The notes under the pieces: generated by a model
Databases searched by the model: none
Told to the model about the DNA's origin: nothing
Seen by the model: the letters and a program-made list of their open reading frames with translations, nothing else
NCBI GenBank assembly: GCA_023267435.1
Contig: JAHFNH010000002.1
Location: 88,706 to 152,705 of the forward strand
Direction of reading: 5' to 3'
DNA from: Candidatus Nomurabacteria bacterium
GTDB lineage: Bacteria > Patescibacteriota > Minisyncoccia > Phycocordibacterales > UBA9973
DNA length: 64,000 bases
Program-made: the position numbers and the translations under genes
In this document: piece after piece, positions 14,318-50,676 of the stretch
How the letters are laid out: every line of letters begins with the position of its first letter
Position numbering within the stretch: position 1 is the stretch's first letter

Positions 14318-15805
14318 TTACATTCCCATGAATTCAATAATTGCACCGCGTAGTTCTGTCTCTATAACATCATCCCAACCTCCTGATAATTTTGTAAGTA
14401 AATCTTTTTTGGCACGCTCTAAGTGTGTGTAGAAATTTTCTTCCCACGCTTTGATTTCTGTAGTTTCTAATTCATCCAAATATCCTTCGTTTACAGCGAA
14501 AATAGAGGTGACTTGCTTGGCGACAGATATAGGAGAATATTGATTTTGTTTTAGAAGTTCAGTCACTCTCTTTCCTCTGTTGATAGATTTCTTTGTTTCA
14601 GGATCAAGATCGGAATCAAACTGTGCGAAAGATTCAAGTTCACGATATTGAGCCATCGCTAGTTTCATTTTACCAGCAACTTTCTTCATTGATTTTATTT
14701 GTGCACTTGAACCCACGCGAGAAACAGAAAGACCGACGTTGATAGCTGGACGAAGACCTTTGTTGAAAAGACCTGTCTCCAAGAATATTTGTCCGTCAGT
14801 GATAGAAATAACGTTAGTAGGAATATATGCAGACACGTCACCGGCTTGAGTTTCGATGATAGGCAAAGCAGTGATAGATCCACCTCCGTAATTTTTATTC
14901 AATCGGCAAGCGCGTTCCAATAAACGGGAGTGCAAATAGAAAACGTCTCCAGGATAAGCTTCACGACCCGGTGGACGGCGAAGCAAAAGAGAAATCTCAC
15001 GGTAAGCCACAGCGTGCTTGGAAAGATCATCATAAATTATTAAAACATCTTTTCCTTTGTCCAAGAAATATTCTCCAAGTGCTGTACCAGAGTAAGGAGC
15101 AAGGTATGAGAAAGCTGGACCGTCAGATGATCCGGCTGAGACGACGATAGTGTAATCCATCGCACCTGCTTCTTTTAATTTTGAAACGATACGAGCGACT
15201 TTTGATTGTTTTTGTGAAATAGCGACATAGATACAAATAATATCTTCGCCTTTTTGGTTGATGATAGTGTCGATAGCTATCGCAGTCTTACCTGTCTGAC
15301 GGTCACCGATGATAAGCTCGCGTTGTCCGCGACCGATCGGAATCATAGCGTCTATGGCCTTTATACCAGTCTGTACGGGGGTTTTCACAGGTTCACGAGT
15401 CATAACACCTGAAGCGACTTTTTCCACCGGGTAAACAGCGTCTGACTGAATAGCACCTGCTTCATCGATAGGTTCACCTAGAGGGTTTACCACACGTCCG
15501 ATGAAATTTTCTCCGACAGGAATAGAAAGAATCTGGTTTGTTCTCTTTACTGTTTCCCCTTCTTTGATTTTAGAAAAATCTCCGAGGACGATAGCTCCGA
15601 CAGAATCTTCTTCCAAGTTGAGCGCGAGCCCAATAGCTCCGGATTCGAAAGAAACCATTTCTGAAGACTGACATTTTGCAAGACCAGAAATCTTTGCGAT
15701 TCCGTCTGCAACTGAAAGGACTGTGCCATATTCATACATCTCGGCACCTCCTTCAAAACCGGCAATTCTCTTTTTCAAATTTTCTATTGTTGTATTCGCG
15801 CTCAT
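14318..15805 (-). CDS. atpA: ATP synthase F1 alpha subunit
   Basis: GDRQTGKT Walker A and alpha signature. Confidence 0.97.
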
Positions 15806-15815
15806 AATTTTAAAA

Positions 15816-16193
15816 TTAATTATTTATAATATTTTTTTCTAATTTTTTCAGACCTGTCATGATACTCGCGTCATAAATCTTTCCTCCGAACTTCGCTCTA
15901 AACCCTGCGATTAATTCTTTTTTTATTTTTAATGATTCATCTAAATGTTCAGCTTTTAGGAAACTCTTTATTTGTTTAGCGGTCTCGGGTTTTATCTCGT
16001 GAGCTATTTCTATTTGTATTCCTTTTTTCTCTTTTTCTTTTTCAGTAATTCTTTCAAGGTGATAAAGTATTGAATTCATCTGACCTTTCAAATTTCTCTT
16101 TTCAATAAAATCAAAAAACTTCTGGTCGAGACCTTCTGTATTTTCTTCAGACAATTCGAATAAAGCCTGAGCCAGTTGTTTTGATTTGATCAT
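15816..16193 (-). CDS. atpH: ATP synthase delta (OSCP) subunit, short form (125 aa)
   Basis: Operon position; C-terminal [17 protein letters not shown] resembles the delta C-terminus. Confidence 0.7.
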
Positions 16194-16688
16194 TTATTTT
16201 TTGGCCAACATTGCGTTGATAATTTCTTCGCCCTTACCTGCAGATACATAACCTTCAACCATTTTACGAACACCGACAGATACAAGCTCTGCGACTTCTT
16301 TTCTGATTGCGTCATCTCCATTTTTCTTTTCTTTTTCTGCATCAAGCTTGGCTTGTCTCAAGATTTCTTCTTTTTCAAGAGTTGCTTTGTCTTTCGCTTC
16401 TTTTACTATTTCTTTACCGTCAGCTTGTGATTGACTGATAATATTTTTAGCATTATCTTTCGCTTCTCTGATTATTTCTTCTTTTTTGAAACCTGCGCCT
16501 TCAAGTTCGACTATTGCTTTTTCAGCATTAGTCAAACCATCCTTTATTTCATTCTCACGATCATCCATCAACTTGCGAAGAGGTTTCGCTGCAATAAAAT
16601 AAAGCGCAATAAAAACAAGCACAAAGTTAAATAACTGCGCGAGCATTATCTTCCAATCTATGTGAAATGTCGAAATTAATTCATTCAT
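16194..16688 (-). CDS. atpF: ATP synthase Fo subunit b
   Basis: Single N-terminal TM plus long charged coiled coil; operon position. Confidence 0.85.
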   Translation of the reverse strand: MNELISTFHIDWKIMLAQLFNFVLVFIALYFIAAKPLRKLMDDRENEIKDGLTNAEKAIVELEGAGFKKEEIIREAKDNAKNIISQSQADGKEIVKEAKDKATLEKEEILRQAKLDAEKEKKNGDDAIRKEVAELVSVGVRKMVEGYVSAGKGEEIINAMLAKK

Positions 16689-16720
16689 GATTTTTCTTTT
16701 TTGTAAATTAAAAAAATTAA

Positions 16721-16767
16721 GGCGTCGTGGGTCCCCTTTCCTATCTTTTCAGAGGGCGAAGGCGCAG
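16721..16767. repeat. E1 repeat element, intergenic copy between atpF and atpE
   Basis: ggcgtcgtgggtcccctttcctatcttttcagagggcgaaggcgcag; two further copies lie in-frame in the FAD oxidase gene (23470..23514, 23929..23973). Confidence 0.85.
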
Positions 16768-16800
16768 AATTTTTTTAAATTTATAAAAAACTTATAAAAA

Positions 16801-17097
<297 letters not shown>

Positions 17098-17116
17098 TTA
17101 TTCGACTAATTTTTAA

Positions 17117-17153
17117 TTTCGCCTCTTCGGCGAATCAGCCGTTGAGGCTGAAA
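17117..17153. repeat. E2 repeat element (double hairpin), intergenic copy between atpE and atpB
   Basis: tttcgccTCTTCggcgaatcagccGTTGAggctgaaa; stems covary with copies at 18951..18986 and 57815..57852. Confidence 0.85.
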
Positions 17154-17156
17154 TTT

Positions 17157-18029
17157 CTAATGTGCGTGTGCTTCCTTGTGTTCTTCGTGTTCACTGTGAT
17201 CTTGTGCTGCTATTGCGAAATACACAGTGGCGAGCAAACTAAAAATCAAAGCTTGAATCAAGCCAACGAATACTTCCAAAAACAAAAATGGTGCTGGCAC
17301 AAGATATGCCATAATGACACCCATAGAAGCCAATAACACTTCTCCTGCAAAAACATTTCCGAAAAGACGGAAAGATAGTGATGCGATTTTTGCCATTTCA
17401 CCGACTAATTCAAGTATTCCAACAAAGAAATTTATAGGAGCAACAATGAGCACTGTCGGGTCTTTTTTCACCTTTGTGAATATGGAACCGAGCGATATTA
17501 GATTAACATATTTATTGAAACTTTTCCATAATCCAACCATAAATATTCCAAAAATATTTGAAGCGATTACCACCATAATAGCAAGCGCTAATGTGGTATT
17601 TATATCAGCTGTGGCAGATCTGAAAAGAGGTACGAAGGTTGCATTTCCTCCTTCAAAAGAAGTAAAACCTAAAGAACCTAGAAGTGGCATCAATCCAAGC
17701 CAATTACTAATCAGTATGAAAAAGAAAAGTGAAAAAGATAATGGAAAAACTTTTTTAGAAATTTTCCTGTCGCCAGTCACCTGATCGCAAAGAGATAAAG
17801 CGCCTTCCATTATGATTTCAAAAAAATTCTGCAACTTTCCTGGTATTTTTTTTAATTTTAAACGAATAGCAAATGCTAATGCTAAAATTATAAGAAGTGT
17901 TAACCACGAAGTGATGATAGAATTTGTAACAGTAAAATTACCAATATTAAAAATCGGCTCAGCAAAGATAGTCACTTCGTGAGATATTGGAATATTAGTA
18001 TTTATATTTTGCGTATTACTTTGAGTCAT
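17157..18029 (-). CDS. atpB: ATP synthase Fo subunit a
   Basis: Polytopic protein with the conserved LSFRLFGNVFAGE arginine motif. Confidence 0.92.
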   Translation of the reverse strand: MTQSNTQNINTNIPISHEVTIFAEPIFNIGNFTVTNSIITSWLTLLIILALAFAIRLKLKKIPGKLQNFFEIIMEGALSLCDQVTGDRKISKKVFPLSFSLFFFILISNWLGLMPLLGSLGFTSFEGGNATFVPLFRSATADINTTLALAIMVVIASNIFGIFMVGLWKSFNKYVNLISLGSIFTKVKKDPTVLIVAPINFFVGILELVGEMAKIASLSFRLFGNVFAGEVLLASMGVIMAYLVPAPFLFLEVFVGLIQALIFSLLATVYFAIAAQDHSEHEEHKEAHAH

Positions 18030-18031
18030 TA

Positions 18032-18271
18032 TTATAAACTTTTTTGATAATTTTTTACTTCTTTAAATATTCCATAACAAGAAACACCAAAACTTAATCC
18101 GATTAAAATTGGAAAAATAAATTGAGAATTTAGATTAAAAAAATTTTTAACAAATAAAGACAACAAAGCTGGAATCAAAATCCATGCTGTTGTCTTGGCA
18201 TAAAAAACCAATGCTATAACTTTCCAATCTTTCTCTTTTTTATCTAATTCTTTCATTTCACAAAAAACCAA
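18032..18271 (-). CDS. Small membrane protein at head of atp operon (AtpI/AtpZ-like)
   Basis: Two hydrophobic helices; position immediately upstream of atpB. Confidence 0.5.
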   Translation of the reverse strand: MVFCEMKELDKKEKDWKVIALVFYAKTTAWILIPALLSLFVKNFFNLNSQFIFPILIGLSFGVSCYGIFKEVKNYQKSL

Positions 18272-18342
18272 AAATAAATCTGAATAATTAGAATAACTAA
18301 AACAAAAACTATTGTTATAATTTCATTTCTATTATTCATTTG

Positions 18343-18414
18343 TGAGTGTGGATGGAATCGGACCATCGACCTCTGTCTTATCAGGACAGCGTTCTACCAC
18401 TGAACTACACACTC
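18343..18414 (-). tRNA. trnI: tRNA-Ile (anticodon GAU)
   Basis: Hand fold: acceptor GAGTGTG/CACACTC, anticodon loop CTGATAA, T-loop TCCGATT. Confidence 0.85.
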
Positions 18415-18468
18415 ATGTGATCTAAAATTAACTCATAAAATATAACAAATATAACAAAAAAGGGCAAA

Positions 18469-18501
18469 TAAAAAACACTCTATTGCTAGAGTGTTTTTTA
18501 T
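18469..18501. terminator. Bidirectional terminator (aacactctattgctagagtgtt) after the RRM gene
   Basis: Perfect hairpin with A- and T-runs. Confidence 0.75.
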
Positions 18502-18521
18502 TTTTAGAAACTAATTTGAGA

Positions 18522-18857
18522 TTAGTATTCTCGGCGTCCACCGCGGTTTCCACCACCGTATCCACCACCATTGCCTCCTCCGAATCCACCAGTTCTTGGT
18601 GGTCGAGCTTCCATAGGGCGAGCTTCGTTGACTGTTAGTTTGCGTCCTTCGAATTCCTGGCCGTTGAACATTGAGACAGCACTTTGTGCTTCCTCGTCTG
18701 TTGACATTTCAACGAATCCGAAACCTTTTGAGCGACCGGACATTTTGTCCATGATAATCACAGCGGAAGTAACACTTCCTGCTTGTGCGAAAAGCTCTTT
18801 AAGAGCATCTTCTTGTGTACTGTAAGGTAATCCCCCTACGTATAGCTTTGTAGCCAT
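18522..18857 (-). CDS. RNA-binding protein, RRM domain with Gly-rich tail
   Basis: RNP2 LYVGGL and RNP1 KGFGFVEM motifs; GGxGGG C-terminal tail. Confidence 0.88.
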   Translation of the reverse strand: MATKLYVGGLPYSTQEDALKELFAQAGSVTSAVIIMDKMSGRSKGFGFVEMSTDEEAQSAVSMFNGQEFEGRKLTVNEARPMEARPPRTGGFGGGNGGGYGGGNRGGRREY

Positions 18858-18950
18858 TCTTATATTTCTCCCGTTTTTTAAAAATCGGGCAAAAACTATT
18901 TATAATGCGTAGATACTCTTACCGCTCAATTGGCTTAATTGGTGCCTAAC

Positions 18951-18986
18951 AATCGCCTCATCGGCGATCTGCCGTAGAGGCAGATC
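18951..18986. repeat. E2 repeat element, intergenic copy between the RRM gene and prfA
   Basis: aatcgccTCATCggcgatctgccGTAGAggcagatc. Confidence 0.85.
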
Positions 18987-19085
18987 AACACTCACAACTC
19001 AAACAAAAAGCTCTGGAGAAACTACACGCGAAGTATAGCACAAAAATAGAAAAAAGCAATGAAAGTGTATAGGTGTGGATAAATT

Positions 19086-20051
19086 TTATTCCTCTTCTTC
19101 ATCCCCTACAGCTCCAGATTCAATAGATTCTATGATTTCTCCTATTCCGCCTTCCATTATTTTAGGCAGATTATGCCAAGATTTTTTAATGCGGTGGTCT
19201 GTCACACGATCCTGTGGAAAATTATAAGTACGAATTTTCTCACTTCTGTCCCCTGTTCCGATCTGACCTTTACGTTCACTAGAATATTTTTTTGCCTCCT
19301 CTTCTTCTTTTAATTGCTGAATCTTCGCAGTCAGAATCATCATCGCTTTTTCACGGTTTGCGAGCTGACTTCTTTCGTTAGTCGAACGAACATCTAGACC
19401 TGTCGGTATGTGAATCAAACGAACTGCCGTCTCAACCTTGTTCACGTTCTGTCCTCCTTTTCCACCAGAACGAGAATATTCCATTTCCAAATCAGCCGGA
19501 TTAATAACAAAATTCACTCTTTTTTTGATAGGTAAAATAGCAACAGATGCTGTCGAAGTGTGTACGCGTCCATTTTTTTCTGTCGCAGGAATTCTCTGTA
19601 CTCGATGCACGCCAGTTTCATAACGCATTTTTTTATAAACATCTTTGCCTTTTATTTCAAAACTCGCTTCTTTATATCCACCAATATCATTTTTTGATTC
19701 GTCGTTTGTCTTCCATTGCCAACCTTCTACTTCAGAAAATCTTTCATACATGTGCGCCAGTTCCCAAGCAAAAAGAGCGGCTTCATCTCCTCCAGCACCT
19801 GCACGAACTTCGAGAACTATTTCATTTGGAAATTCTTCTTCCTCTTTATCTTTATCTAAAATTTCTTGAATTTGTTTTTCTGCACCATCTTTCTGTTCTT
19901 GAATAGACTTCAACTCAGTTTGAGCCATTTCATGTAAAGTATCATCACTCGCGAGCATTTCACGCACTTCAGCTTCTTCACGAGCAAGACGCTCTAAAAT
20001 ACCTGCTAGATAGCTCGTCTTGTGATTTTTTTTTAATTCTTCTAGATCCAT
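19086..20051 (-). CDS. prfA: Peptide chain release factor 1
   Basis: GGQ motif plus RF1-type PAT tripeptide (RIPATEKNGRVHTS). Confidence 0.88.
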   Translation of the reverse strand: MDLEELKKNHKTSYLAGILERLAREEAEVREMLASDDTLHEMAQTELKSIQEQKDGAEKQIQEILDKDKEEEEFPNEIVLEVRAGAGGDEAALFAWELAHMYERFSEVEGWQWKTNDESKNDIGGYKEASFEIKGKDVYKKMRYETGVHRVQRIPATEKNGRVHTSTASVAILPIKKRVNFVINPADLEMEYSRSGGKGGQNVNKVETAVRLIHIPTGLDVRSTNERSQLANREKAMMILTAKIQQLKEEEEAKKYSSERKGQIGTGDRSEKIRTYNFPQDRVTDHRIKKSWHNLPKIMEGGIGEIIESIESGAVGDEEEE

Positions 20052-20065
20052 ATGATATAAGAAAA

Positions 20066-20150
20066 AAGCTTCTTAAAATTTTTTACTTCCGAGGGTCCCA
20101 ACCGGTACTCCGGGAAGGGCGCAGGAATAAAAAATTTCAAGAAGCTTTGG
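20066..20150. repeat. ~85-nt extended palindromic element between rpmE and prfA with a GC-rich nested core loosely resembling E1
   Basis: Outer arms aagcttcttaaaatttttt / aaaaaatttcaagaagctt (18 of 19 complementary), inner cttccgagggtcccaaccggtactccgggaagggcgcagg. Confidence 0.6.
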
Positions 20151-20154
20151 TCAG

Positions 20155-20373
20155 TTATTTCTTTGCTTTAGGAGATGCAGCTCGGCGCTTGTTGAAACGT
20201 TCTACACGTCCAGCTGTGTCCATGATCTTTTCATTACCAGTATAGAAAGGATGGCACTGACTGCAGATTTCCACAGAAATTTCAGGTAAAGTTGAACCAA
20301 CTTCAAATTCAGCTCCGCAGGCGCAAGTAGCTTTGGTCTTATCACTATATTTTGGGTGTATACCTTTTTTCAT
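20155..20373 (-). CDS. rpmE: 50S ribosomal protein L31 (zinc-binding type)
   Basis: MKKGIHPKY start and CxxC…CxxC. Confidence 0.9.
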
Positions 20374-20394
20374 ATTTAAGAGATTATCACAAAC

Positions 20395-21738
20395 CTAAAT
20401 CGAAAGCAAATCTATATCAGACTGTATCTTCTTAGCCTTACTCATAACACCATCACCATAAAAGGCATTAGCTTTTTTATTCCAATTACTACCGGCATAA
20501 TATTTCAAAGCAGCCGTACGCTCAGCGGTAAATCCTCCAGCACTAGCCCCCAGCTCTCCTAGATAAATAGACGATGCCATAAACGCATGCTCCGGTTCCC
20601 AAGGATTTGGCATTCCGCTTATACCGAGTGCATTTGCGATTTTACCTGCATAAAGTTCCCATGTAGAAGGAATAAATTGTGAAGGACCCATTGCTCCGCC
20701 ATAACCACCCTTCCAAGGACAAGACACTGGCATAGAATATGGATTCAAGCCAAGAGCTGCAGTTATGCGTTCAAATGGAGCTTGATCTCGATCAGGTTTC
20801 ATAACATTTTTCCAACTCTTTGAAGGTGGATCATCTGGTCTATTGCATGTACCGATATTTGCTCCTAGATTTGTTTCTTGAGTAAGAATAGCGAGGACAA
20901 ATGCCGGACGCACACCTGTCTTCTTTTCAGCTTCTTGTGCATACTTCAAAGCTGTTCCGAAAGGAATAGCTTTCGAATCACGCAACTGGAAAAGCGCAGC
21001 GCGAATTTTATCTGCTCTGGATTTTTTCTCAGCGGCAAGTTTTTGATAAGCATCTTCTTTTTGTTTTGAAATTGCTAAAAGCTGCTTCTTGTCGGCTTCA
21101 CTTTTAGCAAATTGTTTCTGTGCAGTCTCAAGTTCGACTTTTGCATCAGTTTCAGCATTTTGTTTTATTTCTAAATCTTTCTTTTCAGTTTCAGTTTGAA
21201 CTTTAACTCCGGTAATTTCTTCCACAGAAGCTTTAACAGCTTGTTTAATAGAAGCATACGATTCTAAATCGCTGTAGAAATTTGAAATACTTTGATCAGA
21301 AAGAATCAAATGCATTATATTTTCATTATCAAATTCATTGGTATTTCTTAAAAGCTGAGCGAGAGATTCATGTTCGCGATCTATCTTGTCGGAAAGAGTT
21401 CCTATTGTTGTTACTTTTTCACTAATTGAAACTTTCAATTGAGCTATAACCAAAGCGCGAGCTTTTATTTTTGTTTTTAGAGCATTGATCTGACTAGTCA
21501 AATAATTTACATCGCCTTTCAATGTACCAGTTTGTTTTTGCTGTTCTTTTTGTTTTGCCAATAAGTCTGTTAATTGTTGTTCTATTTGGGCTAATTCATT
21601 ACGACAGTAATCCTTATCTGTTTGTGAAGAAGATATGGAAAGTGTTAAACAGTCAAAAACAGCGTACGCTTTATGGGCCGTAAATCCTGAAAACAACAAT
21701 ATTACAACAAAAAAAGTTATGACCGTTTTCCGTATCAT
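20395..21738 (-). CDS. Secreted coiled-coil protein with C-terminal lytic transglycosylase (MltB/SLT_2-like) domain
   Basis: Signal peptide MIRKTVITFFVVILLFSGFTAHKAYA, long Q/K/E-rich coiled coil, catalytic LTQETNLG and GAMGPSQFIPSTW motifs. Start set to Met-68; the upstream extension is K-rich and overlaps rplY. Confidence 0.7.
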   Translation of the reverse strand: MIRKTVITFFVVILLFSGFTAHKAYAVFDCLTLSISSSQTDKDYCRNELAQIEQQLTDLLAKQKEQQKQTGTLKGDVNYLTSQINALKTKIKARALVIAQLKVSISEKVTTIGTLSDKIDREHESLAQLLRNTNEFDNENIMHLILSDQSISNFYSDLESYASIKQAVKASVEEITGVKVQTETEKKDLEIKQNAETDAKVELETAQKQFAKSEADKKQLLAISKQKEDAYQKLAAEKKSRADKIRAALFQLRDSKAIPFGTALKYAQEAEKKTGVRPAFVLAILTQETNLGANIGTCNRPDDPPSKSWKNVMKPDRDQAPFERITAALGLNPYSMPVSCPWKGGYGGAMGPSQFIPSTWELYAGKIANALGISGMPNPWEPEHAFMASSIYLGELGASAGGFTAERTAALKYYAGSNWNKKANAFYGDGVMSKAKKIQSDIDLLSI

Positions 21739-21799
21739 AACTTTAATTGTAACATAATTTAGTTTAATTTTTCCCTCGGTCATAAACCTACAGGTGAAA

Positions 21800-22438
21800 C
21801 TATTCCGCTGGAGCAGCTTCTTCTTCTTTCTTACCTTTCTTTTCAACTTCGATTGCAGATAGATCAACTGGTGCAGCAACTTCTTCAACTTCTTCTTTTT
21901 GTTCTGCGATCGATGCAACAACTTCGTCAGCTTCAGCAAGGATTGTAACTCCAGCTGGAGCTTTCAAATCTGAAATAAGTATCTGATCATCTAATGTTGC
22001 AAGCTTGGAAATATCAACAACGATATTGTGTGGAAGATCTTTTGGAAGAGCTTCAACTTCAACTTCGTGCAAAACTTTCACAAGTGTACCAGAACCTGAT
22101 TTAACAGCTTCTGAAATACCTTCGAATTCAAGAGGGATATTAACGGTAATTTTCTTGTTCATATCGATCACTAGGAAATCTGCATGTATAGGATCATCGG
22201 TTACAGGATCAACTTGAACATCATGAATTAAAACATCTACATCTCCTTCTGGAGTAGAAATTTTAACAGCAGAAGACTCTCCTGCTTGTTGCCAAACTTT
22301 TTTAAATTCAATTTTTGATACTGAAATTGAAGTGGTCTTTTTATTTAATCCGTAAAAAACAGCTGGCAATTCACCTGCTTTTCGCATTTCTGATAAGTCT
22401 TGTTTTATATCTCTATTTTTCGCTGTTAATTTAAGCAT
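21800..22438 (-). CDS. rplY: 50S ribosomal protein L25 / general stress protein Ctc
   Basis: L25 N-domain plus acidic C-terminal tail. Confidence 0.85.
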   Translation of the reverse strand: MLKLTAKNRDIKQDLSEMRKAGELPAVFYGLNKKTTSISVSKIEFKKVWQQAGESSAVKISTPEGDVDVLIHDVQVDPVTDDPIHADFLVIDMNKKITVNIPLEFEGISEAVKSGSGTLVKVLHEVEVEALPKDLPHNIVVDISKLATLDDQILISDLKAPAGVTILAEADEVVASIAEQKEEVEEVAAPVDLSAIEVEKKGKKEEEAAPAE

Positions 22439-22479
22439 GAAGACATTATATACAAAATTTTTAAAAAGGCAAATTATTT

Positions 22480-24282
22480 CTATACCCCATGGTGTGGTTT
22501 TGGGTGTTCTATGGCTAAATGGCTTGCAACGTATTCTTTGGTGCCCATACCTCCCTGAGGCAGTGCGATCTTTTTACCAGGATTGAAAATATTTTTGGGA
22601 TCAAAGATATTCTTAACTTCACCAAATAAAGCATAAATTTTCTCGCCGTACATTTTTTCCAAATATGGCGTACGGATTATTCCATCATTATGTTCCGCGG
22701 TAATAGAACCTTCATAATCTAAAACTAAATCATAAACCTTTTCGGAAAGCTCAGTTATAATTTCAGCTGTATTGCTCCGACTAAAATCCATCAAGGGGAT
22801 AATATGAAAATTACCATCACCTGCGTGTCCGGCAATCGTATATTCTAAATTATAATTTTTCAAAATATTATTAAGTTCTGGAATAAATTTCGGTAAGAAT
22901 TCTGGACGAACAATAATGTCATCGATAAATGGCGCAGTACGTTTTCCAGAAACATGTTTGCGTAATAGATTAAAGCTCTCACGTCTAATGTCCCAATATT
23001 TCCCTGCTTCAGCTTCTGTTTTAGTAATGTGCACTTCTAGTTTAAAATCTTTTATTTTTTCTTTCAAACTTAAACACTGCTTATTTACTTCTGTATCATC
23101 GTCACTAGCAAATTCAGCTAATAAAATTAATTTCGGAAATCCGCCCGTAATCATCATTTTTAATTCCGGCAAGAAACTCCACATGAATTTTATCATTCCA
23201 AAAAATCCTTTAGTCTTTAAAAAATCTGGGAAAAATCGCACTGCAAGCTTCATAGTCTTATCGTCATAAGTTTCCAATGTCTCAAGGTTCGTTTCTAAAA
23301 TAGAATCTACAAGTTTACCCAATGGCGCTAAATCATTCATGAAAATAACCACAAGTTTCGAATGTTTTGGATTTTTAACAAGTTTGAAAGTTATTTCTGT
23401 GGCTATGCCTAAAGTTCCTTGTGAACCTACGAGTAATTTATTCAGATTAAAGACCGGCAAAGAATTTTTAGCGTCGTGGGTTCCCTGTCCTATGTCTCCG
23501 AGGGCGAAGGCGCCTAAATTCTTTGCTGGTTGGTTCTCTATAACATTCCAAAGATAATATCCAGCAGAATTCTTATGAACTTTTGGTTTTGCATTATTTA
23601 TTTCTTCTTGATTATTTTTTATTAAATCATAAAGTTTTTTATAATTTTCTTCTTTCTGTGAAATTTCACTTAAAGGAAAAGATTTCACAACTCTTTCCAC
23701 TCCATCTGAGAAAACAACTTTCGCTTCCATAACATAATCTTCCGTCTTGCCATATTTCAAAGTTCTTTCACCAGCAGAATTATTACCATACATTCCACCC
23801 ATCGCATTGAGACTTTTTGACGCTGTATAACAAGGTAAAATTAAACCTTCGGCTAAAGTTATCTTTTCAAAATCTCGGTAAAACGTTCCAGGCTGAACGG
23901 TAATAGTACTCTCCAGTAAAGGATTTTTAGAGTCGTGGGTTCCCTGTCCTTTGTCTCCGAGGGCGAAGGCTCCAAAATCCTTTACTGGAGAGAAGGACAC
24001 CAACTTATTCATATATTTAGTGAAATCTAAAATAATAGATTCATTTATCGCCCCACCAGACATATCTGTACCAGCGCAACGAGCTGTAATTGAGAGTTCT
24101 GGATACTTGGTTTTATTTTCATTTACCCATTTCACTAAATTCTGTACATCTTCTGAATCTTTTGGAAAAACAACTAACTTTGGTCTAACTTCAAAAATAC
24201 TCGCATCATGCGAATATTTTTTGAGAGTTTCTTCACTATCATCCACATCTCCCCTGAAAAATTTTTTAATTTCTTCTTTCAC
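22480..24282 (-). CDS. FAD-linked oxidase (GlcD / D-lactate dehydrogenase family) carrying two in-frame E1-element insertions
   Basis: FAD-binding PCMH-type region (RCAGTDMSGGA), C-terminal HAGDGNFH motif. Two 15-aa insertions GAFALGD(I/K)GQGTHD(A/S) are encoded by the E1 repeat. Confidence 0.8.
   Translation of the reverse strand: MKEEIKKFFRGDVDDSEETLKKYSHDASIFEVRPKLVVFPKDSEDVQNLVKWVNENKTKYPELSITARCAGTDMSGGAINESIILDFTKYMNKLVSFSPVKDFGAFALGDKGQGTHDSKNPLLESTITVQPGTFYRDFEKITLAEGLILPCYTASKSLNAMGGMYGNNSAGERTLKYGKTEDYVMEAKVVFSDGVERVVKSFPLSEISQKEENYKKLYDLIKNNQEEINNAKPKVHKNSAGYYLWNVIENQPAKNLGAFALGDIGQGTHDAKNSLPVFNLNKLLVGSQGTLGIATEITFKLVKNPKHSKLVVIFMNDLAPLGKLVDSILETNLETLETYDDKTMKLAVRFFPDFLKTKGFFGMIKFMWSFLPELKMMITGGFPKLILLAEFASDDDTEVNKQCLSLKEKIKDFKLEVHITKTEAEAGKYWDIRRESFNLLRKHVSGKRTAPFIDDIIVRPEFLPKFIPELNNILKNYNLEYTIAGHAGDGNFHIIPLMDFSRSNTAEIITELSEKVYDLVLDYEGSITAEHNDGIIRTPYLEKMYGEKIYALFGEVKNIFDPKNIFNPGKKIALPQGGMGTKEYVASHLAIEHPKPHHGV
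23470..23514. repeat. E1 repeat element, in-frame copy inside the FAD oxidase
   Basis: agcgtcgtgggttccctgtcctatgtctccgagggcgaaggcgcc. Confidence 0.85.
23929..23973. repeat. E1 repeat element, second in-frame copy inside the FAD oxidase
   Basis: agagtcgtgggttccctgtcctttgtctccgagggcgaaggctcc. Confidence 0.85.
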
Positions 24283-24297
24283 AAAAGATTATTGAGA

Positions 24298-25164
24298 TTA
24301 TTGCATTCCACTAAATAATTTTAATCTTGCTTCGACGACTGCTTCGATAGCATCTACCGCCGGCTGTAAAATTTTTGCCGGAGTTATTTCAGATGAATTT
24401 TCTTTCAAGAATTTTTCTACAGCTTCTCTAAAAGCTAAACGTATCTCACTATTTATATGCACAATGGAAATACCCGCTTTGATAGCATTCGTAAAATCTT
24501 CATCTCGCAAACCTGAACCACCATGAAGCACAAGGGGAATACCTGTAACTTTTTTTATTTCTGTCACAAGTTCTGCATTAATATGTGGCTTGCCTGTTTT
24601 AATAAGTCCGTGAATACTGCCGACTGACGGAGCAAATAAATCTATACTAGTCGCATCTACAAATTTCTTTGCATCTTCAGGAGTTGTTAAAATTCCAGCA
24701 CCTTCCGGTACTACATCTCTGATAATTGACCCAGAACCAATATAACCAAGTTCAGCTTCAACTAAAATATCTCTGCCAGTCTTCGCAGTCACTTCACGTG
24801 CATAATCTACACATTGTTTAGTAACAGCTACATTTTCATCAAAAGGTAATTTCGCAGCATCGATGATAACCATATCGAAACCAACATCAATACACTTCTT
24901 TACTGATTCGAAACTCGCATGATGATCTGCGTTTAAAAATATTGGGTAATTATCACGGGTACGAATTTCAGAAACAACTGCATAAACTTCTTCTAATCCA
25001 GCAAATTTTTCTTCCCCTTCTGAAACTCCAATAATAACTGGAAGATTTAATTTCTTTGCTGCATTATAAATACCGTGTAAAGCTTCCAAATTTGAAATAT
25101 TAAAATGCCCGATGGCAATTCCCTTTTCACCAGCTTCCTTTATGTACTCGCGTAATGTTTTCAT
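24298..25164 (-). CDS. fba: Class II fructose-bisphosphate aldolase
   Basis: HFNISNLE…LHGGSG zinc-aldolase motifs. Confidence 0.88.
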   Translation of the reverse strand: MKTLREYIKEAGEKGIAIGHFNISNLEALHGIYNAAKKLNLPVIIGVSEGEEKFAGLEEVYAVVSEIRTRDNYPIFLNADHHASFESVKKCIDVGFDMVIIDAAKLPFDENVAVTKQCVDYAREVTAKTGRDILVEAELGYIGSGSIIRDVVPEGAGILTTPEDAKKFVDATSIDLFAPSVGSIHGLIKTGKPHINAELVTEIKKVTGIPLVLHGGSGLRDEDFTNAIKAGISIVHINSEIRLAFREAVEKFLKENSSEITPAKILQPAVDAIEAVVEARLKLFSGMQ

Positions 25165-45655: not shown

Positions 45656-46093
45656 ATGGAAACAGCCCAGACACAAACAGACAAAGGTATTAGACTATAT
45701 CTTTGCAACATAAACTTGTTCATAGCAGAACATTTAGGTTGTACAATTCCAGGTAATAAATATTACAGAAAACCTGACGGAGAATTACGTTCAATGATTC
45801 CTCCAGCTGAATTTGATCACATGAAATATAATCACCCCAATTTGAATAAAAACACTGAACTTTGGGGGAAAGGTAAAGTGCTTTTCTCTGCCGGTGAAAC
45901 ACCTGAACCATTTTTTGAAATGCCATTAGTAGACGAAGTTGTTGATTTAGATGATATAAAAATATCTGACATAATCATAGCAGTGTGGGGTTTCCTTATG
46001 GACGAAGGAAGAATGTTTTTCAAATTAAAAAGTGACAATGTCGCTCTTGAAATTGATTACAAAAATCAAAAAATTCTTCTGTATGAATTATAA
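45656..46093 (+). CDS. Hypothetical protein (145 aa)
   Basis: ORF; terminator follows. Confidence 0.5.
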   Translation: METAQTQTDKGIRLYLCNINLFIAEHLGCTIPGNKYYRKPDGELRSMIPPAEFDHMKYNHPNLNKNTELWGKGKVLFSAGETPEPFFEMPLVDEVVDLDDIKISDIIIAVWGFLMDEGRMFFKLKSDNVALEIDYKNQKILLYEL

Positions 46094-46205
46094 AATTTCA
46101 TGGTAGTTATATCGGTCTACCCAATAAACAAAATCGAGAGAAGAAATAAATATTTTTTTATTTAATATCTTCGAGTACCTACCTTAGGGTACTTTTAAAA
46201 TTAAA

Positions 46206-46232
46206 GGAGTACCGATGGTGCTCCTTTTTTTA
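46206..46232 (+). terminator. Terminator (ggagtaccgatggtgctcc + T-run)
   Basis: Hairpin plus ttttttt. Confidence 0.65.
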
Positions 46233-46857
46233 TTTCTTTTTATATTTTAATAATAAAAAAAACGCCCTCACATATGTGACGACGCTTTTGCGTTTTTCTC
46301 AATCTTTTGATTGATTAAAACTATGATGGAGGAAATGAAAATCGCTTTAGTCCTTATCTTTGGGAGTTGCTCAAGAGCAATCTTATATGATGAAGGACGG
46401 GATTCCATTCGATTTTTACTGGCTTTATTTTTGTCGTAGATTGGCTAACCTTTGACTAAAATAGTTTTGAATATCGTTTGCTTTTTAAGGCAATGATGAG
46501 ACATTACTACTCTCTCGTTTGATAAACTTGCGTTTTTCTTAGAAAGAACCAATATTTTAAAGAACTATATCCTATGTCTTTTTTAGGGACATTATTTATT
46601 TGATTGATCTCTGTTGCCAGATAAAACCAAATTTTTTCGGAAGAAACTTGTCTTGTTTATGTTTATTTGTTTAGCTTTCGCTTCACATTTAGAACATAGA
46701 ACAAGATTACGAAACCCTGACGAATCTTTTGATTTGGAGTCACTCCTTTTGGGAGGCTTTGACATCAATTAACTCGTATTAAAGATACTACTCAAAAATA
46801 AAATTCCGTCAATTGTGGAAAAGTATTCCGCAACAAAATTATATTTTTTGTCAAAAA

Positions 46858-48318
46858 CTATTCTTTTTTAGGTCTCATTAGAGGGAAAATTTGAGTTTCG
46901 CGAATAGGTTTGTCAGCTAGGAACGCGAACAACATTTCACCAAAACCGAAACCACACGTCGGAGGCATACCATGTTCGAGCATTTCTACGAATTCCATAT
47001 CTGGCATCATTGCTTCTTTGTCCCCCGCTTTCAATAATTCTTGTTGAGCTTCGAATCTTTCAGATTGGTCGATGGGATCATTTAATTCGGAGAATCCATT
47101 GCCAACTTCTGATCCAGCGATGATTATTTGAAATCTTTCTGTTAGATCTTTATTATCCAGCATTGATTTTGATAATGGAGAAACAAGTTTTGGATGACCA
47201 GTTAAAAATACCGGACCGGAGATTTGCTTTCGGCAATATTTCCAAAGTGTATCCACCATGCGTTCCATCGTATTGCCATCATAAACAACATGAAGCTCAT
47301 CGAGCTTTTTCTTTACTTCATCATAAGTAGCATCTAATACATCGATACCTGTTTGAGCTTTCACTGTTTCTCGGTAATCTATTTTTTTCCATTCACCACT
47401 CAAATCAAATTTATGTCCGCGTGTTTCGAATTCAGTTTTTCCAAATACATCATTCGCTATTTTTTTATATAATTCTTCGGTGAGTTTCATTCCGTCTTTA
47501 TAATTCGCATAAGCCCAGTAAAATTCCAAATTAGTAAATTCTTGCAAATGATTAGCATCCGAACCTTCATTGCGATAAGCGCGTCCTATTTCAAAAGTCT
47601 TTGGAAAACCTGCCGCCATCAAACGCTTCTGCCAAAGCTCTCCGATAGAGATACGCATATATAAAGGCAGTTTAAAATCTTCATTGTATGTTTTAAAAGG
47701 TGTCGCTTCGGCACCGCCAGTCGTAACTTCCAGCGATGGAGTTTCGACTTCCATAAAACCATGATCTTTCATAAAATTGCGGGCAGTGTCCCAAAATTTA
47801 GTTTTCTTTTCTAATATATCTCTCACTTCCGGATCCATTAAAATATCCAAATATCTTTTTCGAAAACGCTCTTCAATATCTTGCAACCCATGCCATTTTT
47901 CTGGTAATGGCTGTAATGTTTTTGTGAGCATGCGCCAATCTTTCACTTCAACTGTCTTCTCTCCTCTTTTAGTTGTAAAAAATATTCCTTGCACTTCTAC
48001 GAAGTCTCCTATGTCTGTGACTTCATTAAAGAAATCAAATTTATCATCACCGAGAGAATCTTTCTTAAGAAGAGCCTGAAATTGCGCAGTACCATCATTT
48101 AAAGTCAAAAAAATAATCGCACCTTGTCCACGCATCGACATAATTCTGCCGGCAACCCATTTCATCTCGCCAGACTTTTCTAAATCTGAAAAACTCTCAA
48201 TCGCTTCTGCTAAGGAAAGTTCTCTTTTTGATTCTGCTGGATACGGATTAATACCTCTTTCTTTTAAGAGGTTGAGTTTTTTTATTCTAGCGTCTCTAAT
48301 CTCAGCAATTGTAGACAT
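46858..48318 (-). CDS. lysS: Lysyl-tRNA synthetase (class II)
   Basis: Anticodon-binding OB fold and class II motifs 1-3. Confidence 0.93.
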   Translation of the reverse strand: MSTIAEIRDARIKKLNLLKERGINPYPAESKRELSLAEAIESFSDLEKSGEMKWVAGRIMSMRGQGAIIFLTLNDGTAQFQALLKKDSLGDDKFDFFNEVTDIGDFVEVQGIFFTTKRGEKTVEVKDWRMLTKTLQPLPEKWHGLQDIEERFRKRYLDILMDPEVRDILEKKTKFWDTARNFMKDHGFMEVETPSLEVTTGGAEATPFKTYNEDFKLPLYMRISIGELWQKRLMAAGFPKTFEIGRAYRNEGSDANHLQEFTNLEFYWAYANYKDGMKLTEELYKKIANDVFGKTEFETRGHKFDLSGEWKKIDYRETVKAQTGIDVLDATYDEVKKKLDELHVVYDGNTMERMVDTLWKYCRKQISGPVFLTGHPKLVSPLSKSMLDNKDLTERFQIIIAGSEVGNGFSELNDPIDQSERFEAQQELLKAGDKEAMMPDMEFVEMLEHGMPPTCGFGFGEMLFAFLADKPIRETQIFPLMRPKKE

Positions 48319-48327
48319 TATTAATAA

Positions 48328-48795
48328 TTATGATACGTCGATGATTTTATAATTAACTGTGCCACCAGGAGTTTGGAATGAAACACTGTCTCCTTTCTTT
48401 TTTCCAAAAAGAGCTTCGCCGAACGGTGAATGATTTGAAATTTTACCGGCAGCCATATCTGCCTCCTCTGATCCCACAATAAAATAAGTTTTGTTTTCTT
48501 TTGTACCTTCTTTTTCCACCACGACAGTAGAACCGACTTGCGCCGTGTCACCTCCATGTTTTGAAACAACCATTGATGTCTGTAAAATATGTTCTATCTT
48601 TGCAATACGTTCTTCTAATTTACCTTGATCTTCTCTGGCTTGGTGATACTCTGCATTTTCTGAAAGGTCTCCGAGAGATTTGGCGTACTCCAAGGCATCG
48701 ATTATTTCTTTGCGCTTTGGGCCTTTTAAATCTTCAAGCTCAGCTTGAAGCAATTTTTTCTTCTCTTCGGTTATATAATCTGCTGTCTTATCCAT
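48328..48795 (-). CDS. greA: Transcription elongation factor GreA
   Basis: Conserved coiled-coil with acidic tip and C-terminal FKBP-like domain. Confidence 0.9.
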   Translation of the reverse strand: MDKTADYITEEKKKLLQAELEDLKGPKRKEIIDALEYAKSLGDLSENAEYHQAREDQGKLEERIAKIEHILQTSMVVSKHGGDTAQVGSTVVVEKEGTKENKTYFIVGSEEADMAAGKISNHSPFGEALFGKKKGDSVSFQTPGGTVNYKIIDVS

Positions 48796-48917
48796 TAGTT
48801 AAATCTAACTTTTTTCCATTAAAAAGTCAAAAAATGCTTTCAAATTATAAAGATGACGATATTTACACCACGACAAAACTTGCGATAAATTTTTTATATG
48901 ATATTCTATTGGAATAT

Positions 48918-49148
48918 ATGGCAAAAACAATAATAGAAGTTAAGAAAAATCCAAATGAAAATAACGCGAGCATAATGCGCCGTTTTTCTCGTAAGGTTCA
49001 GGAATCAGGCGTAATCCACAAAGTGAAAGGTTCTCGATATAACGAAAGAAAGGAATCAAAGCTTAAGGTTAAAGCTGGAGCTCTAAAGAGACTAGGTAGA
49101 AGAAAAGAAATCGACAAGCTTCGCAAACTAGGCAAATTGGTAAAGTAA
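48918..49148 (+). CDS. rpsU: 30S ribosomal protein S21 (start uncertain; ATG at 48834 would add 28 aa)
   Basis: …IMRRFSRKVQESGVIHKVKGSRYNERKESKLKVKAGALKRLGRRKE… is S21-like. The N-terminal part of ORF 48561..49148 overlaps greA and is rejected. Confidence 0.65.
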   Translation: MAKTIIEVKKNPNENNASIMRRFSRKVQESGVIHKVKGSRYNERKESKLKVKAGALKRLGRRKEIDKLRKLGKLVK

Positions 49149-49151
49149 AAT

Positions 49152-49604
49152 ATGCAGGAAAATTTATCTATTATAAACAAAACAAAAGGCAAGCTTCCGA
49201 GCTTGCCTTTTAACGAGTTGAAAAATAACATCTTGGGCAAAAATTACTCTTGCTCGATTGTTTTCGTCGGAGAAAAAAGATCCAGAGAGTTCAATAAAAA
49301 ATATCGAGATAAAGATAAGTCTACGAATATTTTATCTTTTTGTTTATCAAAAACTGACGGCGAGATGATTCTATGTCCAGCCGTCGCAAAACGCGAATAT
49401 AAAAAATTCGACAGAACTTTTCCAAATTTCCTAGGATTTTTAGTTATCCACGGAATGCTTCATTTGAAAGGAATGGAACATAGTAGTAGAATGGAGAAAG
49501 CGGAACAAAAATATGATCAGAAATATTTCTATCGGGATAGACATAGGATCATCAACGACAAGAGTCGTGGTGGGAGAATTCTTAAAGGGAGAAAAAAATC
49601 CTAA
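49152..49604 (+). CDS. ybeY: rRNA maturation endoribonuclease YbeY
   Basis: HGMLHLKGMEH zinc-binding motif. Confidence 0.85.
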   Translation: MQENLSIINKTKGKLPSLPFNELKNNILGKNYSCSIVFVGEKRSREFNKKYRDKDKSTNILSFCLSKTDGEMILCPAVAKREYKKFDRTFPNFLGFLVIHGMLHLKGMEHSSRMEKAEQKYDQKYFYRDRHRIINDKSRGGRILKGRKKS

Positions 49605-50676
49605 AGTTATTGGCATTGGTGAAAATGAAACAAAAGGCATCCGACATGGTTATGTCGTAAATTTCAATGACGCAGTAAATTCTGTTAAGAAAGCTGTTGC
49701 TATGGCAGAAAAAACTTCCGGTGTAAAAATAAAACACGCATTTGTTTCAGTCGGCGGCACAACTCTGCATTCAGAAATGAGTTCAGGGGTCGCAATTATT
49801 TCCAAAGCAGATGGCGAAGTGACCAGCCTAGACATAAATAAAGCTATTGAAGACGGAGAAAATAATCTAAAACTCGGCAATAAAAGAGTGATCCAATTGT
49901 TCCCTATTTCTTTCCGCCTCGATGGCAAAGAAGTTTTAGGCAGACCGGAAGGAATGCGAGGAGTAAAGCTTGAAATTAAAACTATTTTCGTTGTTTGTTC
50001 AAGTCAACATTTAGAAGACTTACTAGAAGTAATAGCCGAAGCTGGAGTAGAACCGCTAAATATCATCGCCTCGCCTATCGCCGGAAGTAATATCGCATTA
50101 TCCGACAGACAAAAAATCGTAGGATCAGCATTGGTTAGTATCGGTTCGGAAACTGTATCAATCGGAGTATTTGAAAATGGCTCGCTCATATCTCTCCACA
50201 CATTTTCAATCGGTTCATCTGATATCACAAATGACATAGCTTTGGGTTTGAAAATTCCGTTGGAAAAAGCAGAGAGTTTCAAACTTGGAAATATTTCCGA
50301 AGATTATTCAAAGAAAAAACTAGATGAGATCATTGAAGCTCGTTTATCTGATATTTTTGAACTCATCGAGAATCATCTGAAAAAAATAAAAAGAAATGAA
50401 CTCCTGCCTGCCGGCATTGTATGGATAGGTGGAGGTTCTTCTATACCTAAACTTGAAGAATTTTCAAGGTCTGCATTAAAACTCCCATCCAGAGTGGGAC
50501 AGACAGATATGTTTGGTAATGCAAAAACAAAACTTCGAGACCCGTCCTGGTTTACAGCACTGGGTCTTATAATAGAAAACAAAGATAGTAAAGGACCAAC
50601 CGGCAACCCATTTTCCAATCTTTTAAAAGATCTAATAAACGCAATAAAATCAATGACTAAACAGCTCATGCCTTAA
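49513..50676 (+). CDS. ftsA: Cell division protein FtsA
   Basis: Actin-like IGIDIGSSTTRVVVG start; overlaps the ybeY 3' end by 92 nt. Confidence 0.88.
   Translation: MIRNISIGIDIGSSTTRVVVGEFLKGEKNPKVIGIGENETKGIRHGYVVNFNDAVNSVKKAVAMAEKTSGVKIKHAFVSVGGTTLHSEMSSGVAIISKADGEVTSLDINKAIEDGENNLKLGNKRVIQLFPISFRLDGKEVLGRPEGMRGVKLEIKTIFVVCSSQHLEDLLEVIAEAGVEPLNIIASPIAGSNIALSDRQKIVGSALVSIGSETVSIGVFENGSLISLHTFSIGSSDITNDIALGLKIPLEKAESFKLGNISEDYSKKKLDEIIEARLSDIFELIENHLKKIKRNELLPAGIVWIGGGSSIPKLEEFSRSALKLPSRVGQTDMFGNAKTKLRDPSWFTALGLIIENKDSKGPTGNPFSNLLKDLINAIKSMTKQLMP

Follow-up and report, generated by a model that had tools for sequence, protein, structure and literature searches.

The window analysed here is a 64,000-nt stretch of a Candidatus Nomurabacteria bacterium genome (assembly GCA_023267435.1, contig JAHFNH010000002.1, forward-strand positions 88,706 to 152,705). 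Its subject is E1, a GC-rich hairpin element that occurs twice, in frame, within a gene for a predicted FAD-linked oxidase and a third time, in diverged form, between atpE and atpF. A hairpin of a sister family, T2, lies nearby between rpmE and prfA (Table 1).

Table 1. Oxidase gene and hairpin elements in the window (position 1 is the first nucleotide of the 64,000-nt stretch)
Feature	Position	Strand	Description
Host gene	22480..24282	minus	intact 600-aa open reading frame; predicted FAD-linked oxidase, GlcD / D-lactate dehydrogenase-like
E1 copy A, full hairpin, insertion site 1	23909..23992	minus	encodes ~P99-L123 (PVKDFGAFALGDKGQGTHDSKNPLL)
E1 copy A, GC-rich core	23932..23970	minus	exact pattern match; nhmmer E=4e-17
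E1 copy B, full hairpin, insertion site 2	23453..23530	minus	~Q251-L275, about 25 residues, between the AGYYxWN and FxLN motifs
E1 copy B, GC-rich core	23473..23511	minus	exact pattern match
E1 copy C, diverged, intergenic	hairpin 16697..16789, core 16724-16763	minus	pattern matches with 2-3 mismatches; nhmmer E=2.7e-13
T2 element, sister family	20038..20175	minus	inverted repeat; hairpin occupies the rpmE-prfA spacer, sense

Hairpin inserts in a functional oxidase gene

The 39-nt E1 string, GCCTTCGCCCTCGGAGACA(A/T)AGGACAGGGAACCCACGAC, has exactly two matches in the window, spaced 459 nt apart, compared with 0 matches expected by chance (100 shuffles). Both are in frame within the oxidase open reading frame (ORF), with the translations GAFALGDKGQGTHDS and GAFALGDIGQGTHDA, and the E1 peptide in the oxidase can be written as GAFALGD(K/I)GQGTHD(S/A). 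The original prediction had correctly described two in-frame copies at this spacing, but it took them for 45-nt insertions of 15 residues. That segment is only the GC-rich core of the inserted unit, which codon alignment against empty-site orthologues identifies as a 78-84-nt hairpin adding ~25 residues at each site. The arms of copy A (23909-23927 and 23974-23992; CTCTCCAGTAAAGGATTTT and AAAATCCTTTACTGGAGAG) pair over 19 bp with 100% complementarity, and its fold reaches -37.5 kcal/mol (z = -5.2); those of copy B (23453-23467 and 23516-23530) pair over 15 bp with 93% complementarity. The site of copy A is vacant in the orthologues P0002 and P0005, and that of copy B measures 93 nt in the window versus 18 nt in empty orthologues. 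Copy C occupies the atpE-atpF spacer in sense orientation, with arms (16697-16718 and 16768-16789) of 22 bp and 82% complementarity, and its hairpin stops 9 nt before the atpF start codon. An intergenic copy had been said to share the nucleotide sequence of the two oxidase copies; the core of copy C instead differs from theirs by ~7 mismatches and one indel. The T2 hairpin of the window folds at -42.1 kcal/mol on the minus strand, and its 5' arm contains the rpmE stop codon; its 3' arm, which may sequester prfA translation initiation, contains the prfA start codon (20051). None of the arm sequences occurs a second time within the window, and a copying of the arms from nearby sequence was rejected on this ground.

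The same two oxidase sites have been colonised repeatedly by different families. Among the 120 best homologues (67-80% identical, from Candidatus Nomurabacteria and related Paceibacteria, 544-637 aa), the differences in length fall at the two E1 sites of the window and at two minor sites. Many orthologues are vacant there, and in others the E1 peptide or peptides of quite another kind are present. Both segments are insertions, as had been proposed: insert-free orthologues exist at both sites (e.g., '...D--ENFIT' and 'NVIQNN--IFDLN'), orthologues without E1 have nothing or other element families in these places, and the same peptides were not encountered in homologues without E1 DNA. A further 80 orthologous oxidase loci from metagenomes (individual loci are cited by L numbers throughout) were retrieved by tblastn, so that this set is independent of ORF calling. 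Of these loci, 26 have an empty site 2 (18 nt). The site holds E1 in the window, L117, L119, and L173, antisense E1 in L161, E1b in L124, T2 in L116, L118, L129, L137, L149, L152, and L171, and T8, in either orientation, in L125 and L181. Two tandem elements occupy it in L133 (5256-5430), L142 (10768-10942), and L177 (1337-1529), in frame and contributing ~52-58 residues together; the pairs in L133 and L142 consist of two T8-family elements in opposite orientations. No frameshift or stop codon crosses either site in 83 of 83 oxidase orthologues. The E1 core at site 2 of the window is identical to those of L117, L119, and L173 at 35/35, 35/35, and 34/35 positions, whereas identity at the third-codon positions of these genes amounts to just 49-60%; this constancy may stem from a sequence requirement, from ectopic conversion, or from insertions that are recent and independent. 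That the two sites are recurrent insertion hot spots had escaped the original prediction, as had the covarying stems that flank the core, the true insert size, and the wide spread of the family.

The oxidase is a functional gene under purifying selection, and its inserts are tolerated loops, because the ORF is intact, the ratio of nonsynonymous to synonymous substitution rates (dN/dS) is low, the invariant motifs are kept, and the inserts fall in coil modelled with a low predicted local distance difference test (pLDDT) score. Both Pfam domains expected of the GlcD / D-lactate dehydrogenase family of FAD-linked oxidases, FAD_binding_4 (E=4.6e-23) and FAD-oxidase_C (E=5.5e-45), are found in the ORF together with the conserved motifs of that family. 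Its solved relatives in the PDB are LctD (7qh2_C, the best match, E=1.6e-25), glycolate oxidase, and D-lactate dehydrogenases. Comparison with six orthologues gives a dN/dS of 0.09-0.16 at dS > 1.2 (dS is saturated for a seventh), and all 168 columns that are invariant in 56 orthologues are kept in the window. The AlphaFold2 model (predicted template modelling score 0.80) has pLDDT < 50 at residues 104-121 and 252-272, i.e., at the inserts, which are modelled as coil, the first flanked by strands 94-98 and 126-129 and the second by strands 248-250 and 276-278. That one gene holds two insertions and that model confidence is low at the inserts could be read as early damage in an oxidase decaying toward a pseudogene, a possibility raised at the outset. 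We regard this as highly improbable, given the strength of purifying selection at such synonymous divergence and the full-length ORF with its invariant columns. In addition, dozens of genomes hold orthologues of 544-637 aa with zero to several inserts, and indispensable genes (PheT, LeuRS, LigA, and others) harbour the same elements.

Spread, reading frames, and anatomy of the family

In genomes of Nomurabacteria, E1 is common. A genome scan with a degenerate core pattern, restricted to one genome per species, returned more than 115 stretches among the matches listed, and nearly all of these belong to metagenome-assembled genomes (MAGs) that bear the label Nomurabacteria, Paceibacterota/Paceibacteria, or Patescibacteria group. 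Among the rest, a few carry the name uncultured Candidatus Saccharibacteria, some have no classification, and a single one is assigned to Burkholderiales (L040). The last, an E1-bearing MAG contig (JAMPXW010000002.1), probably comes from Patescibacteria and was placed in the wrong bin, rather than reflecting horizontal spread. Viral contigs gave 0 matches to the E1 core, and carriage by phages was rejected. At least 124 E1 copies were aligned; 77 of these 124 (about 60%) are intergenic, and 42 lie in sense and five in antisense orientation in long ORFs, so that 38% are intragenic; about 35% are in frame in housekeeping genes. The landing places are A/T-rich junctions, the stretch right after stop codons between co-directional genes, and permissive protein loops. 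Nine host proteins were found, namely PheT, LeuRS, MnmA, the CCA-adding enzyme, RsmH, LigA, UvrC, and DnaB, which are products of essential genes, and the FAD oxidase. Besides an E1 insert, the LeuRS genes of two Nomurabacteria loci (L065:1282-4431(+) and L082:4922-7855(-)) encode an inserted NUDIX domain (PF00293) at approximately residues 420-519.

The in-gene elements are, as judged from their reading frames, predicted to be transcribed and translated as ~25-aa surface loops rich in Gly, Ala, and Thr. The common intergenic subtype, with the closing bases cTGAg and the core ...TCATAAGG..., is closed by stops in two sense frames and, inside genes, is limited to the third, and the coding subtype can be read through in the AFALGD frame; each E1 subtype is confined to the frames in which it is open (in-gene frame tally, 37/7/1). 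A messenger from which the element is excised like an intron, or over which the ribosome passes as at byp elements or T4 gene 60, would yield a protein without the insert. The long stem, which brings both insert boundaries together, would suit such a process, and the GC clusters that are bypassed in Magnusiomyces mitochondria (PMC8811140) are similar to GC-rich hairpins set in an AT-rich genome. Removal or bypass is nonetheless very unlikely, because the constraints on frame and stop codons would not exist otherwise: the 83 oxidase orthologues retrieved by tblastn are in frame and stop-free across single as well as tandem inserts, the stop-containing subtypes are barred from their closed frames, and the downstream frame is kept and stops are absent for every in-gene insertion.

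The duplication is at the level of a DNA element and not of a protein domain, as first proposed. The two oxidase copies share a frame and encode near-identical peptides, which is what lineage-specific loops would look like if they arose by ordinary protein evolution or within-gene duplication and the nucleotide similarity were secondary. We find this barely credible. The core is also present in non-coding DNA, in three frames (other-frame readings begin SLRPRS... and PSPSRS...), in antisense (SWVPCP..., SRGFPVL...), and in at least nine unrelated protein families, and the nucleotides of the flanking stems covary even though this alters the encoded amino acids.

The superfamily, in which E1, E1b, T2, T3, T8, and several larger families were told apart, shares a layout of ~75-130 bp, with a GC-rich core stem-loop of 35-45 nt, a semi-conserved A/T-rich inner stem, and a longer outer stem that differs from copy to copy yet is always complementary. 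In E1 the core is a near-invariant 35 nt. Across the 124 copies, the mean pairwise identity falls from 0.93 in the core, a value that is partly due to the construction of the search pattern, to 0.73-0.78 for the inner arms and to 0.34-0.35 for the outer ones, where random sequence would give 0.30. The motifs CGCCCT, CGGAG, and GGGA(A)CCC(A/T)C are common to E1, E1b, and T2, which appear to be modular relatives. The arms pair strongly (anchored dynamic programming score of 14.1 vs 1.07 at control positions) and covary massively; in columns 16-89, for example, AU occurs 38 times, UA 31, GC 20, and CG five. Between L116 and L118 the arms change from CAGCCTGT/ACAGGCTG to CAGTCTGT/ACAGACTG, a compensatory exchange that replaces Pro by Ser on one arm and Ala by Thr on the other, and the T2 arms of the window and L043 differ at two positions, at each of which the partner arm has changed to match. 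Mismatches in the arms, read on the sense strand, comprise 66 G.T and 90 A.C (p = 0.065), a trend away from wobble; the excess of G.U that would mark selection on a sense RNA is absent, and the arm pairing therefore looks Watson-Crick and DNA-like rather than RNA-like. The T2 core is a three-tier stem-loop in which 92% of cells are paired, compared with 75.7% in shuffles (0 of 500 as high) and 35-56% in slid-register controls, and seven pairs change on both sides. Core swapping, i.e., site-orthologous arms around different cores, was not demonstrable (identity of 0.31-0.36 vs 0.33 at unrelated sites) in a test that is low in power because neutral sites are saturated.

Insertion, inversion, and the nature of the elements

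Whole hairpins, arms included, are inserted DNA, and one junction has been struck by several families. This follows from the comparison of filled and spacer-free versions of the rpmE|prfA junction. In 10 genomes it reads TAAATG, the genes abutting or overlapping by one base with no spacer at all. Elsewhere the spacer holds T2 (window, L043, L142, and L143), E1 (L044), T8 (L125), or E1b in opposite orientations (L131 and L171), and larger hairpin families in other genomes. The arms travel with the element, since copies that share outer arms (L024/L034, both in one genome; L030/L073/L114; L072/L093; L033/L039) have unrelated flanks. In L024/L034/L056 and in L030/L073/L114 the element extends from directly behind the stop codon to a few nucleotides short of the next ATG. 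Elements also turn around in place: the site-2 hairpin of L181 matches that of L125 at 65 of 68 positions in reverse complement, including the arm mismatches, and at only 48 of 71 directly, and this near-identity in reverse complement only identifies an in-place flip. Opposite orientations at the same site in different genomes were seen for L125 versus L181, for L131 versus L171, and for L037 and L038/L161.

Taken together, E1 is probably part of a superfamily of mobile elements, small, palindromic, and non-autonomous, that is found in Candidatus Nomurabacteria and other Paceibacteria (Patescibacteria, the Candidate Phyla Radiation or CPR). The whole hairpin inserts at A/T-rich junctions, in spacers behind stop codons, and in permissive protein loops; inside genes, where the copies found are in frame and stop-free, it is predicted to be read through as an extra surface loop, and the host oxidase stays functional. 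The hairpin can invert in place, and the same sites are recolonised by different families. Quasi-palindrome template switching and arm-to-arm conversion are established mechanisms, and DNA-level processes of this kind acting on the hairpin, rather than selection for RNA pairing, may keep the arms complementary. The near-identity of the core across genomes may in turn reflect a sequence requirement of propagation or ectopic conversion among copies.

Several observations weigh against this interpretation. By inspection, no target-site duplication shows up when filled junctions are set against empty ones, nor around pairs of recent copies, and the outer arms, at 34-35% identity, contain no terminal inverted repeat of the classical kind conserved across E1 copies. 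No transposase or other mobilising gene is linked to the elements in ~2 Mb of fragmentary loci. A fresh insertion between near-identical loci was not caught, the pairs being either ~100% or <90% identical, with one unrelated 144-nt indel. The genome-wide coding class is defined by the presence of a spanning ORF and is thus circular, the oxidase set alone being free of this. The site-2 core stays constant at 34-35 of 35 positions where third-codon positions have diverged, which strains the picture of selfish decay, because a purely selfish, decaying element is not expected to be so conserved. Lastly, the orientation of the element matches that of the local gene in 11 of 13 minority-strand cases (8-kb loci, with a crude proxy for replication); orientation that tracks the local gene hints at an RNA-level or transcription-linked constraint, which selfish DNA would not lead one to predict.

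Genes for Y1/HUH transposases are present in some of these genomes. They encode proteins of ~214 aa that are IS200-like or RAYT-like (motifs PNHFHIL and YIHLNP) and lie at L118:14674-15318(-), L036:5268-5912, L164:8363-9025, and L095:4981-5550. Each such Y1_Tnp gene has its own small, genome-specific hairpin on both sides (e.g., GCTAGGTCTTGCCTAGC), unrelated to E1 or T2, and the window contains none of these genes. They were the only transposase-like genes seen in the ~2 Mb of fragmentary loci searched, and none of them showed a link that would make a RAYT/Y1 transposase the mobiliser.

The elements could alternatively be functional structured-RNA modules of mRNAs, acting in stability or processing or as a site for an RNA-binding protein or RNase, with host selection driving their spread and translation merely tolerated. 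We consider this rather unlikely, although several observations speak for it. Besides the match to minority-strand genes, sense copies in ORFs outnumber antisense copies by 42 to 5, though antisense E1 has two open frames, and the gene upstream of an intergenic copy is co-oriented in 56 cases and opposite in 10. Intergenic copies follow right after an upstream stop codon, which usually ends 23-45 nt ahead of the core and so falls within or at the 5' arm, and their 3' arm can mask the next ribosome-binding site and start codon (20038-20175 and 16697-16789). The core stem-loops covary, as shown above for T2, their apical loops on the sense strand include GNRA-like (GUGA) and UUCG tetraloops, and the core is much more conserved than synonymous sites of the host genes. 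On the other hand, the arm mismatches do not have the G.U excess on the sense strand, flipped copies persist at the same sites, and no particular site needs the element, many orthologous sites being empty or filled with unrelated families or tandem pairs. No known RNA family was recognised either: Rfam at the gathering threshold returned only tRNAs in the window, and in E-value mode only microRNA-precursor hairpin artefacts, which scored no more than 35 bits where the thresholds are 48.5 bits or higher. Neither search placed the elements in an Rfam family, self-cleaving ribozymes and riboswitches included. A consensus scan of 15500-24500 called no intrinsic or SPRITE-like terminator on the sense (minus) strand at any of the four elements.

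In the literature searched, we found no published description of elements of this sort in Patescibacteria or Nomurabacteria. The copy-specific covarying stems, the flips, the multi-family hot spots, and the gene-linked orientation raise new questions about mechanism. It is rather unlikely, though conceivable, that the hairpins are more than junk in one of two ways: they might be a so far unrecognised bacterial mobile element that spreads as a self-complementary hairpin with no transposase of its own, its arms held in register by templated self-correction, with flipping in place and core exchange among resident hairpins, or, not exclusively, a CPR-specific structured-RNA module that serves the host in operons and even in coding regions. 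A structured-RNA module would explain the transcription-linked orientation and the extreme conservation of the core.

Known palindromic repeats and further hairpin families

[quoted passage not shown] RPE-like is meant here as a functional class, compared by description and not as a sequence family, and the host phyla are distant (Alphaproteobacteria for RPEs, CPR/Patescibacteria for E1). According to excerpts of PMC10969869, RPEs, like the E1 family, are small palindromic repeats of several families that are intergenic and yet unusually often in frame in unrelated housekeeping genes, where they are translated as extra peptide segments judged compatible with the fold. E1 likewise is a multi-copy palindrome of intergenic and coding DNA (77 copies intergenic and 47 in long ORFs, with hairpin scores far above control) and lies in frame in unrelated housekeeping genes (nine host proteins; 83/83 oxidase orthologues). 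RPEs, as far as the excerpts describe them, are ~150 bp long and encode a conserved peptide, whereas in the E1 family conservation is confined to a ~65-nt core, and the outer stem covaries and is specific to each copy. Recolonisation of the same site by several families, tandem occupancy, and in-place flipping characterise E1-type elements and go unmentioned for RPEs in those excerpts (PMC10969869).

The mitochondrial repetitive, hairpin-forming elements are a precedent of the same kind (PMC2800124). Yeast mitochondrial GC clusters and the E1 family are both GC-rich palindromes of many families in a very AT-rich genome (PMC8811140, PMC2800124), mostly intergenic but also optional in frame (var1) and kept in the RNA (PMC8811140). 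The GC clusters, the mitochondrial repetitive or double hairpin elements, and the E1 family are also recombination and conversion hot spots (PMC8811140, PMC2800124). [quoted passage not shown]

The resemblance to bacterial MITEs and REPs is more limited. In excerpts of PMC10969869, bacterial MITEs (Correia, ERIC, RUP, BOX, QMITE, and others) share with E1 the short, multi-copy, non-coding, hairpin-forming character, the presence or absence between genomes, and occasional intragenic in-frame fusions. Classical MITEs have family-wide terminal inverted repeats, target-site duplications, and a cognate insertion sequence transposase, and none of the three was found for the E1 family: its outer arms are 34-35% identical versus 30% at random, inspection of junctions and recent copy pairs revealed no duplicated target, and the ~2 Mb of fragmentary loci searched held no transposase gene that shares its ends. 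With repetitive extragenic palindromes (REPs), their REPIN doublets, and REP-associated tyrosine transposases (RAYTs), the E1 family has in common a GC-rich imperfect palindrome, the absence of target-site duplication, a strand- or orientation-specific arrangement, and Y1_Tnp genes in these genomes. REPs are extragenic and the conserved part of REPINs is the stem, whereas the conserved part of E1 is apical and a third of the copies are intragenic (38%). A RAYT gene is, moreover, bordered by the REP sequences themselves, whereas the hairpins on either side of the Y1_Tnp genes have no relation to E1 or T2.

Translated GC-rich palindromes in AT-rich, reduced genomes were known from Rickettsia and mitochondria, and the Candidate Phyla Radiation is now added. 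Many housekeeping proteins of Nomurabacteria, whose genomes measure ~1 Mb or less, vary in length by multiples of ~25-30 residues, and the elements explain the length variation seen here, such as the range of 544-637 aa among oxidase orthologues. For annotators, the segments are thereby recognisable as neither novel domains nor assembly errors nor pseudogenes. As a natural experiment, the elements mark the insertion-tolerant loops of essential enzymes.

The phenomenon is broader than E1 and T2, because several further hairpin families exist. Larger or different GC-core hairpins include GGGTACGGATTTTTTGAAGCTTAAAAAATCCTGAAG..., T5 (AGGTCGCCCCAAGGTGACCGAAGCACTGCC...), and T4 (GGTGGCTC..GAGACGGGGTGGA...). 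They were seen in the rpmE|prfA spacers of L117, L127, L134, L156, and L038, in L133 and L198, and at L065:3420-3534, L043:6643, and L085:457. In the window itself, a different GC-rich double-hairpin motif, TCGCCTCTTCGGCGA..(N)GCCGTNGAGGCNGA, has three copies (17119-17152, 18952-18987, and 57816-57857), one of them between atpB and atpE and one downstream of prfA, and no copy has an Rfam match at the gathering threshold. The cumulative GC skew reaches its minimum and changes sign at ~46000-50000, a sign that the window may contain a replication origin or terminus; the four hairpin elements of the window are all on the minus strand, on the negative-skew side.

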